A DNA stretch of 58,389 nt from Dehalococcoidia bacterium (GTDB lineage Bacteria; Chloroflexota; Dehalococcoidia; Lucifugimonadales; UBA2985). The notes under the pieces were generated by a model that was not told where the DNA came from, made no database searches, and saw nothing but the letters and a program-made list of their open reading frames with translations. Shown in pieces: positions 40,774 to 47,020 of the stretch. The stretch covers positions 1 to 58,389 of the forward strand of contig CAUZMC010000005.1 in the NCBI GenBank assembly GCA_963580875.1. Reading direction: 5' to 3'. The stretch's first letter is position 1. Every line of letters starts with the position of its first letter. The position numbers and the translations under genes are program-made.

Positions 40774-40788
40774 TGAGACAGTGTCTCA
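40774..40788. promoter_or_regulatory. Perfect 7-1-7 palindrome, candidate Fur/Zur operator
   Basis: TGAGACA-G-TGTCTCA; the last A is the A of the regulator's ATG. Confidence 0.65.
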
Positions 40789-41222
40789 TGCAACTTTCCA
40801 TAAAAGCACAGCCGGATCTCCTTGCAACCCTAGAAGACCGCGGGTACCGCGTCACACAACCCAGACGCGAGATCATTGACATGTTGGGAGAGAAACAAGA
40901 GGGATTTAGTGCCAGAGAGATATGCACTGATCTTCCTGGAGTGGGACGAGCCACGGTCTACAGGTCAATCAAGCTCCTGCTAGAGGCCGGAGTTATCTGC
41001 AAGCTTATATTGCCCAACGGCGAGCAAAAATATAGCCTGGCCCGTGGCGAGCACCACCACCATACTATCTGCGTAATGTGTGGGACCGTCGGAGAATTCA
41101 GGGACTCCACTGTTGAACGGGCACTGAAAACCATAGGAGCAGATATCCCGGGAAAGATCGTAGGCCACCGCATGGAATTCTACATCACTTGCCAGGATTG
41201 CCTGGATACTTCCAAGAAGTAG
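40788..41222 (+). CDS. Fur-family metalloregulator (probably Zur)
   Basis: GYRVTQPR, GRATVYRSI, HHHHTICVMCG and CQDC. First gene of a Zn-type ABC operon. Confidence 0.92.
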   Translation: MQLSIKAQPDLLATLEDRGYRVTQPRREIIDMLGEKQEGFSAREICTDLPGVGRATVYRSIKLLLEAGVICKLILPNGEQKYSLARGEHHHHTICVMCGTVGEFRDSTVERALKTIGADIPGKIVGHRMEFYITCQDCLDTSKK

Positions 41223-41281
41223 ACTGCGTGCAAGACATGATATTACCTGTGAAGCCAATGATAGATAAATCTACGTCATTA

Positions 41282-42205
41282 ATGATACGTAATATCAAGT
41301 ACGCTAAGCATAGCTTAGCCATATCGCTGCTCATGGCTTCCATAGTAATCATATCGGTTGCCTGTAACACTGAAAGTAGCGATAACACCGGTACGTTGGT
41401 TGTCACAACGATATACCCCCTTGAATATTTTGCACAGCGGATTGGAGGGGACAAGGTCTCCGTGACGAATCTACTCAAACCGGGAGTAGAGGCACACTCC
41501 TTTGAACCAACACCCGATGATATACGAAAACTGGATGCTGCAGACGTGATCATATACAATGGTTCTGGCTTAGAGCCTTGGGTGGGGCGCGCCCTATTGG
41601 CCATGGGAAATGATAGCAATCAACGCCTCATCATTGAAACCAGCTCTGAATTGACGAATGAAAACGACTACACAGAAATAGACCCCCACATTTGGCTGGA
41701 TCCGCTAAAGGCAATCGAGCAGGTGAAGCTCATAAGAGATAGTCTAATCAGCGCCAATCTTGAGGGAGAAGACACCTACACCGCCAACGCCGAAAATCTG
41801 CTGACGGAAATCCTGTCTTTACACCAGGCATATAGCAACGGGCTAGTTAAATGTGCAACTACCCAGTTCGTTACATCCCACGCGGCATTTGGGCACCTAG
41901 CAAAACGTTATGGTCTTGAACAGATACCAATCTCGGGCCTGTCCCAAGAGGTGGAGCCCGGCCCGGCAGACCTCGCACGTATTATAGACACGGCCCTGAA
42001 AATTGGGGTGCACTATGTGATGGTGGAGCCAATCATCAGTACCTCGTACGCTGAGACAATGGCCTGGGAAATAAACGCCAAACTACTGCCTCTACACCCT
42101 CTTGAGAGTCTGACATCAGAGGAGTCTGATAGGGGTGAGGACTATTTTTCCATCATGGAGACCAATATGGAAAACCTCAAGCTGGCTCTAGAGTGTACAG
42201 CATGA
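41282..42205 (+). CDS. znuA: Zn/Mn ABC transporter substrate-binding lipoprotein (ZnuA/AdcA-like); start uncertain
   Basis: Lipobox SVAC, with EAHSFEP, DPHIWLDP and SHAAFG. Confidence 0.88.
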   Translation: MIRNIKYAKHSLAISLLMASIVIISVACNTESSDNTGTLVVTTIYPLEYFAQRIGGDKVSVTNLLKPGVEAHSFEPTPDDIRKLDAADVIIYNGSGLEPWVGRALLAMGNDSNQRLIIETSSELTNENDYTEIDPHIWLDPLKAIEQVKLIRDSLISANLEGEDTYTANAENLLTEILSLHQAYSNGLVKCATTQFVTSHAAFGHLAKRYGLEQIPISGLSQEVEPGPADLARIIDTALKIGVHYVMVEPIISTSYAETMAWEINAKLLPLHPLESLTSEESDRGEDYFSIMETNMENLKLALECTA

Positions 42206-42990
42206 GCAATGAAACCAATCAAGTAAAACCTCCGAACTCCGTGTTGGAATTCGACCACGCTTGGTTTGCCTACGATGGAGAGCCGGTGATAGAGGACGTA
42301 ACTTTCGCCCTTGAAAAGGGTCAATTTGCAGCCATTCTAGGTCCAAACGGAGGAGGCAAAACCACAATGCTGAGACTTGCTCTCGGCCTGGCCAAGCCCA
42401 GCCGTGGCAGCGTTTCCCTCTTCGGAGAGCCTCCTGCTAAGTTTCGTGCCTGGGGACGCGTTGGCTACGTGCCACAGGCCACCGAAGGCGTACAAACCAG
42501 GTTCCCAGCCACAGCTGAGGAAATCGTAGCCCAGGGCTTATACAGGGGTTTCGACCCCCTCGCCGTTTGGCGTTCCAGCGGCCATCCTTCAGTAATGCAA
42601 GCCATGGAAACCGTAGATATCGCCGACCTTCGGGGCCGTCGAATTACATCTCTCTCTGTGGGCCAACAGCAGCGCGTTCTGATCGCCCGGGCCTTAGTCA
42701 GGGATCCGGAACTATTGATGTTAGATGAGCCACTTGCAGGCATAGATGCCGCCGGCCAAGAGCAGTTCCACACTCTATTGCGTCGTTTAAACAGCGAAAT
42801 GCACATGACAATCCTACTGGTCTCACACGACATAGGCGCCGTGATGCGAGAGGCTACATCAGTGGCCTGCATCAACAAGAGCATTGTATTTCACGGGCCT
42901 ACCCACACGTTAACTCAACCTGAGCTGGCCGAGCTTTATGGATTCCCTGTAGACGTCCTTGTACACGATGCGCTACACGAGCACCGCTAA
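42202..42990 (+). CDS. znuC: Zn/Mn ABC transporter ATPase
   Basis: GPNGGGKT, VGYVPQ, LSVGQQQR, LDEP and VSHD. ATGA overlap with the previous gene. Confidence 0.9.
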   Translation: MSNETNQVKPPNSVLEFDHAWFAYDGEPVIEDVTFALEKGQFAAILGPNGGGKTTMLRLALGLAKPSRGSVSLFGEPPAKFRAWGRVGYVPQATEGVQTRFPATAEEIVAQGLYRGFDPLAVWRSSGHPSVMQAMETVDIADLRGRRITSLSVGQQQRVLIARALVRDPELLMLDEPLAGIDAAGQEQFHTLLRRLNSEMHMTILLVSHDIGAVMREATSVACINKSIVFHGPTHTLTQPELAELYGFPVDVLVHDALHEHR

Positions 42991-42994
42991 ATAC

Positions 42995-43840
42995 ATGCCA
43001 TCAATATTCGAATACGAATTCATGGTCAGAGCTATCATCGGCGGAGCGATGGTAGGAGCACTAGCACCTGTCCTTGGAATGTTCCTTGTCCTGCGCCGCT
43101 TTGCACTCATCGCAGACACTCTCTCTCACGTGGCTTTCATGGGTGTAGCCATAGGTCTCATCACCAAGATTTCCCCACCATTAGTCGCACTTGGAACCAC
43201 ATCAATCGCTGCGATTGCAATAGATCAACTCCGGGCGCGCCGCATGATGCCAAGTGACGCTGCACTAGCCGTATTCCTGTATGCGGCACTGGCCATCGCA
43301 GTTGTAGTAATCAGCCTGGCAGGGGGATTCAACGTAGACATGTTCAGCTATCTATTCGGTAGCGTCCTAACCATCAACACCACTGACCTATGGTTAGTAG
43401 CAGGCCTGATGGTTGTGGTCATCGGCTTCGTAGGGATGTTTTTCTCGGAACTTGCACAAAGTTCATTCGACGGCGACCTTGCCCGTACCAGCGGCGTTCC
43501 TGTGGGATTGGTCAACCTCATTCTAGCCGTGCTAACAGGTGCGACCATAACCCTATCAATGCGCATAGTGGGTGTCCTGCTGGTAGGAGCGTTGATAGTC
43601 ATACCTGTGATAGCAAGTTTGAGATTGGCAACAGGGCTACGTACCGCCGTCATTCTCGCAATGGCCTTCGGTATCTTCAGCTCCCTGACGGGATTGACCA
43701 TAGCCTATTACGCCAATGTAGCCGCAGGTGGAGCGGTAGTACTAACCGCTGTTGGGCTGCTGGTACTGGTCGAGATCGGAATGGCGTTAAGGGAACAGTT
43801 TAAACACGGCAAATGGCATAATACTGACACTCCTACATAA
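42995..43840 (+). CDS. znuB: Zn/Mn ABC transporter permease
   Basis: VLRRFALIADTLSHVA, YLFGSVL and VGVLLVGALIVIP. Confidence 0.9.
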   Translation: MPSIFEYEFMVRAIIGGAMVGALAPVLGMFLVLRRFALIADTLSHVAFMGVAIGLITKISPPLVALGTTSIAAIAIDQLRARRMMPSDAALAVFLYAALAIAVVVISLAGGFNVDMFSYLFGSVLTINTTDLWLVAGLMVVVIGFVGMFFSELAQSSFDGDLARTSGVPVGLVNLILAVLTGATITLSMRIVGVLLVGALIVIPVIASLRLATGLRTAVILAMAFGIFSSLTGLTIAYYANVAAGGAVVLTAVGLLVLVEIGMALREQFKHGKWHNTDTPT

Positions 43841-44033: not shown

Positions 44034-44597
44034 TTAAGGAAAGGTCAAATTCACCACAAGTACCTGAAACGCAGATCCTCTGTAGATAGACGTTTCCGCT
44101 GCCTGTAGCTCACCATAATGGAAGCTGATCGTCTTTCCATCCAACGCCCAGTCGTTAGGAGCAATAATGATGGGCGAATAGCTTCCGTTAAATACCTTAG
44201 AAGGTCTGGACCGCCACCATTCCACCCTCGCCTCAATAAATGTCCCATTAATAGCTGGTTGTCCTCCAACTGTAATATTGCCTGAAAACTGGCTGAAAAG
44301 TAACGGGCGTCCACCTAAAGGCGTTGCGATAGGCGTAGGAGTTGGGGTCATTGTAGGAGTGGGGGTTATTGTAGGAGTGGGGGTTATTGTAGGAGTGGGG
44401 GTTATTGTCGCCGTAGGCCTTGGAGTTCTCGTTGGTGTGACTGTAGCCGTAGCGATAGGTATCGGCACAATCGTTGGAGCTTGAGTAGGACTAGGTACAA
44501 GAGTGGCTGTCGGAAACGGCGCAACAGCAGGTGCTGGTGAACATGCAAGCATCATCAGCATTACCAATAACATCAAACTTATGTAAAATTTCATCAT
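44034..44597 (-). CDS. Lipoprotein with a Pro/Thr-rich stalk and a small C-terminal beta domain
   Basis: Signal peptide with lipobox MLAC, PT repeats, then [12 protein letters not shown]...GTFIEARV. Confidence 0.85.
44335..44406. repeat. 4 x 18-bp tandem repeat encoding TITPTP-like units
   Basis: gtaggagtgggggttatt three times exactly, plus one variant copy. Confidence 0.9.
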
Positions 44598-44784
44598 TAC
44601 CACAGAGATAAAATAGCGCGTATAAGATACCATCTTCTCATAACGCTAGCAAGTAACCCCCAATCCACACCTGTAAGAACATGTCTTTATCACAATATCA
44701 TGAGCATCTATATTTAGTGTTCCTGGGTAAAATCGCGTTATACTACTGCAATAAAGAAAACTAGAGTCTCTAAGGAGGGGTACT

Positions 44785-45015: not shown

Positions 45016-45261
45016 GGCAAAGACTAGCTTTGGAGCAAGCGCATCGCCAAATCCATGCCATAAGAACCCCACACTAACCGCTCATCATCACACTCTTGCT
45101 TCTGCCATCCATATATCGGCATAGCAATGATTGACAAGTAGAACCATCATAAGCATGCGAGGAAAACATCGATCTCATAATCTTCTGTGTTTTTTGCAAA
45201 ATCTGATATCCTCAGTTACAATAAACTGAAACCTTGAGGAACCATTGATGGAGTCGCCAGT

Positions 45262-45489
45262 TTGGAAAACACGGTCGTCATATACACCCATCCGGAATGC
45301 AGCTTCTCCTCTGCTGCCAGGGAAGATTTATGGGTACGCAACATCTCCTTCCGAGAAGTTGACCTCAGCATAACCCCTGAGGCATGGGGAGAAGTGGAGC
45401 TACTGACTGGTGGAGACCGAATAACTCCGGTAATTGTGGAAGGTGAGTTGGTGACAGTAGGATTCAATGGCGAGGGTTGAGCGTTCTGA
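45262..45489 (+). CDS. Glutaredoxin-like selenoprotein of the U-x-x-stop type (Sec at TGA 45478-45480)
   Basis: Grx fold IYTHPECSFS...ITPVIVEG..VTVGFNGEG, then TGA GCG TTC TGA, then a SECIS-like hairpin. Confidence 0.82.
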
Positions 45490-45491
45490 AC

Positions 45492-45508
45492 GGAGGCGGT
45501 CAGCCTCC
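45492..45508 (+). promoter_or_regulatory. Bacterial SECIS-like element
   Basis: GGAGGC-GGTCA-GCCTCC. The stem starts 11 nt after the UGA, the loop starts with GG, and no U-tract follows. Confidence 0.72.
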
Positions 45509-45600
45509 AATATAAAGAGGAATATTAACAACAATCTTTGCACACGCATCTCACGCTTCTGAAAATCCCAATGACGGGATTTAGTGTTTCGTCCCAAAAC

Positions 45601-45679
45601 GGCCCGGTGGTGTAGTCTGGTTTAACACGCCGCCCTGTCAAGGCGGAGAGCAGGAGTTCAAATCTCCTCCGGGTCGCCA
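45601..45679 (+). tRNA. tRNA-Asp(GTC)
   Basis: Acceptor GGCCCGG/CCGGGTC, anticodon arm CCGCC-CTGTCAA-GGCGG, T-loop TTCAAAT and an encoded CCA. Confidence 0.97.
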
Positions 45680-45691
45680 CTATCAGGATAC

Positions 45692-45729
45692 ATAAAGGAC
45701 CAGGAAGTATTTCCTGGTCCTTTATCTTT
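45692..45729 (+). terminator. Intrinsic terminator after tRNA-Asp
   Basis: ATAAAGGACCAGGAA-GTAT-TTCCTGGTCCTTTAT followed by CTTT. Confidence 0.85.
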
Positions 45730-45889
45730 GCTGGGTGGTCTTGTTATCTATAGATACAGAAACACGTTTAGACAAGTCAACTAGCATCTATGTGCTTTAT
45801 TTTCGCGGCAGTATCTAGTATTCCGGATAATACAGACACATAGTATCCAGGCTTTAATTTACCAAGGCAATGAGGGGCAAGATGCCAAT

Positions 45890-46400
45890 ATCACACGAAT
45901 TCATTGCCAAAACCAGCGGCAAACATCCATGGCTAATACTTCTAGTTTGGCTGTTAGGCTTGGCTGGATCAGGATATTCTCGAGCTTAGATAAGTGTAAG
46001 TGATCCGTCGGCTGGTAGTGCGAATGGCACTGGAACTTCTTTATCGGTGGATACCGCGTATGTTCACCCACGGTATCCTTATAATATGGTTTAATTGGGA
46101 GATGTTGTAATGGTATACCAGTAAACCTACATTGGCAGTATTGGCCCTGATGCAATACTGGACTAGCCTGTGGAATCAGTACCCGGGAGCACCTGAAGTA
46201 TTTATCTCAGTATTTCAGGTGAGCTGATAGACAAGTCCTTCCGTGGCAATTGTCGTCGCCGTAGTAAACGGAACTGATTGTAATGTATATTCCTGCCGAA
46301 ATTAGCAGCATTGGGATATAGAGAGTTGGAGTATTTGTGAGTGCACACGCTAATGTTCCAAGTCACAATAAAAATTATGGAAACCGCGTTGCACAAGTCC
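45890..46400 (-). pseudogene. Possible decayed gene remnant (lipoprotein-like)
   Basis: No intact ORF in about 700 nt. Minus-strand fragments (LGTLACALTNTPT, VPFTTATTIAT, TYAVSTDKEVPVPFALPADGSLTLI*AREYPDP) are broken by stops and frame changes. Confidence 0.3.
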
Positions 46401-46428
46401 TATGTACTGTAAATCAGCGCTAAATGTC

Positions 46429-46462
46429 CAAGGGTCGCCAGATTATTATCTGACGACCCTTG
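46429..46462 (-). terminator. Hairpin terminator downstream of the RRM gene
   Basis: CAAGGGTCG-CCAGAT-TATT-ATCTGA-CGACCCTTG. A second small hairpin, CTGAGCA/TGCTCAG, lies at 46470-46496. Confidence 0.65.
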
Positions 46463-46522
46463 ATTATTTCTGAGCACCCCAATTACGACTGCTCAGGGAT
46501 TACCTAGTTTGGAAAACCAGAA

Positions 46523-46918
46523 TTACCAGCCACCGCGCCCACCACCACCACCAAAGCCACCGCCGCCGCCGCCGCTGCGACCGCCGCCGCCATATCCACC
46601 GCCACCACCACCATATCCGCCGCCGCCACCACTGCGACCGCCGCCGCCATATCCACCGCCACCAGACCCACGCTCCTGACGAGCTCGCGCCTCGTTGACT
46701 GTTAGAGTACGACCGCCCATTTCCTTGCTGTTTACAGCTGCAATACCAGCATTGGCTTCCTCAGCTTTTGGCATTTCCACAAATGCAAATCCCCGAGATC
46801 TACCAGTTTCCCTGTCACGCACAACAGAGACTTCCTGCACTTCGCCGTGGAGCTCAAAAGCTTCACGCAATTCCTGTTCAGTTGTCTCGTATCCAAGATT
46901 CCCTACGTATATCCTCAA
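46523..46918 (-). CDS. RRM RNA-binding protein with a glycine-rich tail (Rbp-type)
   Basis: RNP2 IYVGNL, RNP1 RGFAFVEM and GGGGY/GGRS repeats. TTG start after SD AGGAG. Confidence 0.95.
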   Translation of the reverse strand: MRIYVGNLGYETTEQELREAFELHGEVQEVSVVRDRETGRSRGFAFVEMPKAEEANAGIAAVNSKEMGGRTLTVNEARARQERGSGGGGYGGGGRSGGGGGYGGGGGGYGGGGRSGGGGGGFGGGGGRGGW

Positions 46919-47020
46919 ACTATCTCCTATAATTAGACTGATCTCCACACAGTTGCATGTTAATCAGTCTGGTCAGGTGAGGGGTATTACCCCCCACCTT
47001 CCAAATTCTAATATAACTTC

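Follow-up and report, generated by a model that had tools for sequence, protein, structure and literature searches.

The gene at positions 45262 to 45489 on the forward strand of the DNA analyzed here (a 58,389-nucleotide stretch from a Dehalococcoidia bacterium, the whole of which we call the window) is, we conclude with high confidence from comparative sequence analysis, a genuine selenoprotein gene, a member of the UXX-star (seleno)protein family 2, in which the UGA at 45478-45480 would be read as selenocysteine (Sec). The reading frame opens with a TTG at 45262 and reaches its first stop, this TGA, after 72 codons; it is followed by GCG TTC and a second TGA at 45487-45489. With the first TGA read as Sec, at residue 73, the product is a glutaredoxin-like protein of 75 amino acids that ends G-E-G-U-A-F, and the second UGA, two codons past the Sec codon, is the true stop. 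A Shine-Dalgarno-like GGAG (45250-45253, same strand), read from the sequence, lies 8 nt before the TTG, and the aligned starts of relatives, TTG, GTG or ATG, have GGAG-like sequence upstream as well. Behind the true stop stands a hairpin (45492-45508) that resembles a bacterial SECIS element. The preliminary description of this locus had given the positions, the second TGA, the sequence and spacing of the hairpin and the lack of a U-tract after it, and all of these proved right to the base.

Protein collections hold the gene only as the truncated 72-aa product, called 'glutaredoxin' in one source, and because the product is cut at this point, the residue likeliest to do the chemistry is missing from the records. 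The practical value of the Sec reading lies in annotation, in that it would correct these truncated protein records.

Reading of the UGA codon

If the first UGA were a plain stop, the product would be a 72-aa glutaredoxin-like protein, and the hairpin would stabilize the mRNA or act in attenuation before the tRNA-Asp gene that lies downstream. Gene callers do yield 72 aa, a product present in the collection with five cluster members, one of them named 'glutaredoxin'; all 23 close homologue records cover 92-95% of the query, that is, end at the TGA; and TGA is a normal stop in the window, where it ends 7 of the 32 long open frames. The comparison of related genomes, however, makes this reading very improbable. 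A scan of one genome per species gave 174 candidates, 172 of them confirmed, from which 80 loci were kept, all titled Dehalococcoidia, Chloroflexota/Chloroflexi or SAR202 (an alignment query found these relatives; a single-protein query did not). Of the 80 loci, 79 have TGA as the Sec codon and the remaining one (L132) has a Cys codon, TGY, so that every locus without Cys has TGA; TAA and TAG are absent from this position throughout the set. The next stop, by contrast, makes use of all three codons: after the TGA come two codons and a stop in 74 loci and three codons and a stop in five, and among the 74 the stop is TAG in 46, TAA in 15 and TGA in 13. The two intervening codons are conserved as protein, in the form [SAT]-[FYM], always with a stop behind, and Cys-form homologues carry Cys exactly at the Sec position. 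Further evidence against a plain stop comes from the hairpin, which holds the SECIS spacing and an invariant G and U in its loop, and from the presence of the full Sec machinery in the genome. A second set of 30 fetched loci, which overlaps the 80 and includes some of the same genomes, agrees, with 29 that read G-x-G-U-x-x-stop and one, L046, that has Cys at the Sec position. Of 61 related genomes (the source genome included), 40 have a match to the family 2 model, NF041211, that exceeds the cut-off, and 37 of those matches contain one in-frame TGA.

The source genome (1.31 Mb in 57 contigs, 96% complete) encodes all the components that Sec insertion would call for. The tRNA-Sec scores 67.1 bits with Rfam, over the cut-off, and is called tRNA-SeC with anticodon TCA by ARAGORN; selA (552 bits), selB (374 bits) and selD (344.6 bits) are likewise over their family cut-offs, selB being full-length (positions 2-580 of 581) and selD running off the end of its contig. 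The selD gene (L018, G000:C32:1-2321, minus strand) itself has an in-frame TGA in its active-site motif, C-A-G-U-A-S-K, so that SelD, too, appears to be a selenoprotein. The same observations bear on the possibility that UGA has been reassigned throughout the genome, for example, to Trp or Gly. Nothing specific speaks for such a change, except that translating TGA as a residue keeps this frame open, and it is effectively refuted. The ordinary use of TGA as a stop, in 7 of the window's 32 long frames, excludes it, and TGA is also the terminator of this very gene; selA and selB are intact under translation table 11, internal stops being absent; and the tRNA with the TCA anticodon is tRNA-Sec according to both Rfam and ARAGORN.

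Sec insertion at 45478-45480 is, then, the reading that we retain. The preliminary description had proposed a 75-aa Sec protein ending G-U-A-F, and the TGA in 79 of 80 loci, the machinery, the hairpin and the NF041211 match agree with it. It had also named the absence of Sec genes, or homologues with TAA or TAG at the Sec codon, as findings that would speak against the proposal; the Sec genes are present and no such homologue occurs among the 80 loci. Its corollary, that selenocysteine is used in this lineage, holds as well. This corollary is not news because Dehalococcoidia, with 46-49 selenoproteins in the BSepDB paper (2026, PMC13326102), are already on record there among the selenoprotein-rich bacteria. 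With the family catalogued and the lineage known to be rich in selenoproteins, the picture of selenium use is unchanged. Our literature search returned no paper on selenoproteins in SAR202, nor on a glutaredoxin-like selenoprotein in Chloroflexi.

The hairpin behind the stop codon

The hairpin, GGAGGC-GGTCA-GCCTCC, consists of a 6-bp stem and a 5-nt loop, 17 nt in all. It begins 11 nt past the first TGA, its loop lies 17 nt past that codon, and no T-run follows it. Taken as a single sequence, the hairpin is only moderately unusual: a 25-nt window folds at -12.6 kcal/mol (z = -4.28, with none of 200 shuffles as stable), and for 61 nt around the hairpin z is just -1.93, 8 of 200 shuffles being equally stable. 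It is the comparison across relatives that, on the evidence of the aligned sequences, makes the hairpin more than chance. In an alignment of 29 sequences, covering 40 nt from the TGA onward, 84.7% of the cells are paired, compared to 71.3 +/- 1.6% in shuffled alignments, a level that none of 500 shuffles reach, and to 36.5-59.1% when the register of the stem is slid. Compensatory changes occur in all 6 pairs of the RNAalifold structure, or in all 7 pairs of our own structure, and the G and U of the loop are invariant. The conservation and covariation that the preliminary description had proposed to look for are, accordingly, found in every pair.

The bSECIS model (PMC13188914, section 5) has a loop of 3-9 nt, a stem of at least 4 bp, a G in loop position 1 or 2, 16-37 nt between the UGA and the loop, and a minimum free energy of -7.5 kcal/mol or lower. 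The window hairpin, with the 5-nt loop GGUCA, 6 bp, a distance of 17 nt and -11.1 kcal/mol, agrees with this model on all four counts, and so do 64 of 79 distinct downstream sequences of relatives, as judged by a crude automatic parse; the 15 that depart from it on at least one count in most cases do not reach -7.5 kcal/mol, in genomes rich in A+T, or else the parser chose another hairpin. The spacing is 16-22 nt in 75 of 78 parsed downstream sequences. Downstream of the Cys-form locus L046, the G+C hairpin is absent (-4.2 kcal/mol). No SECIS family was matched in an Rfam scan at the window locus, where the sole overlapping match was 'gyrA RNA' with E = 0.78, far under threshold. That the hairpin matches a bacterial SECIS in form and spacing is strongly supported by these sequence comparisons, and, as had been proposed, the element is located wholly in the 3' UTR, behind the stop at 45487-45489, a placement that the architecture of the family demands.

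The likely course of decoding is that SelB with Sec-tRNA(Sec) would bind the hairpin, 11 nt downstream of the UGA, which would be decoded as Sec, and the ribosome would then add Ala-Phe and terminate at the second UGA. Given that the terminator is also a UGA, telling the two codons apart would rest on spacing: the second UGA is presumably spared recoding, and terminates, because just 8 nt separate it from the loop, less than the published range of 16-37 nt. A TGA terminator is a normal variant in this family, as 13 of the 74 U-x-x-stop relatives use it. The locus is a clean natural case of a bacterial SECIS wholly behind the stop, with a second UGA three codons after the Sec codon, and, with that UGA so near and the SECIS in the 3' UTR, it could provide a compact system for studying how spacing alone would separate recoding from termination.

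The window hairpin resembles the SECIS of E. coli fdhF, the model bacterial element: in both cases, a hairpin lies just 3' of the UGA, with G/U opening a small apical loop, and both fit the same consensus model. The minimal fdhF element is the 17-nt upper stem-loop, located 11 nt after the UGA, which is the geometry of the window hairpin. The complete fdhF element, however, is part of the coding sequence, with a bulged U and a longer lower stem, whereas the window element is 17 nt long and untranslated. That a bacterial SECIS can work behind a stop is indicated by engineered expression, in which rat and human TrxR were made in E. coli with a SECIS in the 3' UTR, as described in section 5.4 of PMC10778597. 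According to the same section, this arrangement leaves the coding sequence unconstrained, a property that the window gene shares, and in mammalian TrxR, which ends G-C-U-G, Sec lies a few residues from the C-terminus, as it does in the window protein. The TrxR arrangement is engineered, whereas that of the window is natural, and the proteins are unrelated. Moreover, the partner Cys of TrxR, which forms a selenenylsulfide with Sec (as stated in the title of reference 57 in PMC10778597), is adjacent in sequence, whereas in the window protein, with its Grx fold, the partner would sit 60 residues away.

Family membership and fold

For the profile searches, the TGA was read as U and given to the programs as C. 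The 75-aa product matches NF041211, "UXX-star (seleno)protein family 2", over profile positions 1-71 of 71 with 110.1 bits, a margin of only 10 bits over the cut-off of 100; a six-frame search of the genome finds the same model, again over positions 1-71 of 71, with 103 bits and one internal TGA. The parent model NF041212 scores 92 bits (cut-off 66) and the Pfam glutaredoxin family PF00462 scores 32.2 bits (cut-off 22.9). The C-terminus, G-E-G-U-A-F-stop, contains the GxGU end motif and the U-x-x-stop of family 2. A table in a review (PMC13188914, 2026) lists UXX-star family 2 with the motif GxGU and one Sec and credits Haft & Tolstoy 2025 (mSystems 10:e0141724). The described family of Grx-fold, U-x-x-stop proteins to which the preliminary description had alluded does, therefore, exist; the gene belongs to an already catalogued family and is not a new kind of thing. 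The window protein shares with family 2 the Grx-like fold, the G-x-G-U-x-x-stop, the single Sec and the SECIS behind the stop, and no tested feature sets it apart.

UXX-star families 1 and 3 and the HUGP/GUXX-star fusion (NF041114, NF047338 and NF045501) also combine a Grx-like domain with a Sec three residues from the end, as here. As identities of the window protein these can be dismissed, with scores of 47.6, 58.9 and 58.3 bits, respectively, against cut-offs of 72, 97 and 325; they are sister families. Nor is the protein an NrdH or a Grx3 in the family sense, with 29.4 bits against a cut-off of 85.75 for TIGR02194, 24.9 against 90 for TIGR02181, and the motif C-S-F-S; TIGR02196 is under its cut-off, too (33.7 against 88.55 bits), and the YruB family model scores the 75-aa product below its cut-off.

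The AlphaFold2 model, built from an alignment of 28 sequences, has a pLDDT of 97.4 and a pTM of 0.86, with an ordered C-terminal tail (about 95), and the best PDB folds that Foldseek retrieves for it are NrdH-redoxins and glutaredoxins, with TM scores of 0.68-0.82. The structures 4hs1, 1h75, 3grx and 4tr0 have the same fold as the window protein (TM 0.75-0.82, 24-33% identity) and share with it the active-site Cys, located where helix 1 begins, as well as the cis-Pro TPV loop. Unlike these proteins, the window protein has CxxS in place of CxxC, and a short G-x-G-U-x-x tail replaces the C-terminal helix. The C-S-F-S motif (Cys13 to Ser16, encoded at 45298-45309 on the forward strand) aligns with the active-site position of the thioredoxin fold. 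All 28 aligned sequences have its Cys, as well as Sec or Cys at profile position 70, and the T-P-V loop is likewise invariant in the protein alignment.

Among the close genomes, all 91 distinct Sec-form sequences have CxxS, and CxxC is the motif of the Cys forms L046 and L132 and of the first gene of L138. A rule that the Sec form goes with CxxS and the Cys form with CxxC failed, however, in the wide search, which recovered at least 20 Cys-form proteins among the 150 representatives listed: 20 of these comprise 4 with CxxC, 6 with CxxS, 5 with CxxT and 5 in which the motif is unreadable or differently aligned. CxxC is also the motif of eight proteins ending at profile position 69. L138 (G050:C1:894800-896800, minus strand) contains two tandem Cys-form paralogues, one with CxxC that ends G-V-G-C-T-F-Y and the other with CxxT that ends G-I-G-C-Y-G before a TGA.

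Possible function, neighborhood and expression

As a 75-aa protein of the NrdH/glutaredoxin fold, the product may be a small thiol/selenol redox carrier. Cys13, in C-S-F-S, and Sec73, in the G-x-G-U-x-x end, are its only invariant chalcogen residues, and we have moderate confidence that the two form a reversible selenenylsulfide and that the protein functions as such a carrier. A redox pair is favored because of the fold and the position of the Cys, because no other chalcogen residue is invariant, and because a ResA-like gene comes next on the same strand in 24 of the 80 related loci, the closest relative, L055, among them. The main rival to a redox function accepts the same gene and the same recoding and makes Cys13 and Sec73 ligands of a metal or metalloid, in a chaperone, sensor or detoxification factor. 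The case for metal binding comes from the neighbors: 18 of the 80 loci encode a heavy-metal ATPase of the P1B type (CPC motif) immediately upstream, on the same strand, and the window has a Fur-family regulator with a ZnuA/ABC/ABC-3 metal-uptake operon 1.4-4.7 kb upstream. The loci with the ATPase neighbor, however, are all 53-60% identical to the window protein and, being probably one clade, represent few independent events, and in the window, a minus-strand gene stands between the metal operon and the selenoprotein gene. Furthermore, a thiol-disulfide oxidoreductase accompanies the gene in a larger number of loci (the 24 of 80), and the fold and Cys position are those of redox-active NrdH/Grx. 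Metal binding thus strikes us as possible but rather unlikely.

If the protein is indeed a redox carrier, its partner in the relatives could be the ResA-like W-A-S-W-U-x-C selenoprotein encoded directly downstream. This neighbor (L055:1771-2490 on the plus strand, and 23 others among L055-L134) is a ResA-like/AhpC-TSA protein with a TPR tail, and its gene contains a conserved in-frame TGA, in W-A-S-W-U-[AGVD]-C-R. It scores 153 bits with NF041054, 'WAxxUGC', for which the cut-off is 300, and therefore may be a shorter variant of that family. The source genome has no Sec-form homologue of the ResA-like gene, the best match being 36% identical and without an in-frame stop, so in this organism the partner must be something else. 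It is conceivable, although we put this forward as a doubtful proposition, that the UXX-star protein and the cytoplasmic ResA-like W-A-S-W-U-x-C protein make up a two-selenoprotein redox relay, encoded in an ancestral unit transcribed together with tRNA-Asp, of which the streamlined genome keeps the carrier and the mRNA-tRNA unit. In such a case, the 3'-UTR SECIS would sit in a transcript that has to be processed as well for a tRNA to be released. The data on the neighborhood, that is, the ResA-like selenoprotein, the P1B ATPase and the tRNA-Asp, are leads rather than results.

The gene for tRNA-Asp(GTC), identified by ARAGORN and with 64.7 bits in Rfam, occupies 45601-45679, on the strand of the selenoprotein gene and 111 nt beyond it, and a tRNA-Asp gene is downstream on the same strand in 48 of the 80 related loci. 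The two genes are possibly co-transcribed. A strong hairpin with a T-rich tail at 45692-45725 on this strand (-24.1 kcal/mol; z = -5.36, none of 200 shuffles as stable), which the consensus terminator scan missed, probably terminates the unit. A promoter-like site, TTGCAA-17 nt-TACAAT (45194-45222, forward strand), precedes the start codon by about 40 nt; this is weak evidence and proves nothing alone because the scan does not rise above chance, with 3 promoter-like sites against 2.2 expected in the scanned region (and 1 terminator against 0.9). Contigs from RNA libraries in four seawater metatranscriptome runs, from four studies, cover 45243-45680 or more with zero letter differences and thus extend across the gene, its SECIS and tRNA-Asp; the contigs of three runs start at 45238-45243 and have their ends at 45680-45737. 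These starts hint weakly at a 5' end shortly after the promoter-like site, and the contigs are, likewise, a weak hint of an expressed mRNA-tRNA unit, given that contigs of this kind may include DNA and are no proof of transcription or of a single transcript. Stretches without such cover (for example, 45172-45239, in three runs) carry no evidential weight.

Neighbors were kept only if confirmed by Pfam or tblastn, the clustering of stop-to-stop ORFs being noisy, with overlapping frames as its top clusters. In the 18 loci with the P1B ATPase (L074-L100), that gene ends about 120-350 nt upstream of the UXX-star gene. In the window, the Fur-family regulator, ZnuA, ABC ATPase and ABC-3 permease genes are encoded at 40788-43840 on the plus strand, in an operon of the Zur/ZnuABC type, upstream of which is a topoisomerase I gene on the minus strand. 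On the other side of the selenoprotein gene, about 800 bp (45730-46500) separate the terminator of the tRNA-Asp from a gene for an RRM protein (46523-46948, minus strand). This gap, unusual for a 1.3-Mb genome, is devoid of ORFs of at least 85 aa, and its sole Rfam match is a sub-threshold one to the SpF25 sRNA (32.2 against 48 bits). The minus-strand gene at 44034-44633 encodes a protein of 199 aa without a Pfam match, whose N-terminus is hydrophobic and which contains a long Pro/Thr-rich repeat; 13 of the 80 related loci have the C-terminal part of this protein in the same place, upstream and on the opposite strand.
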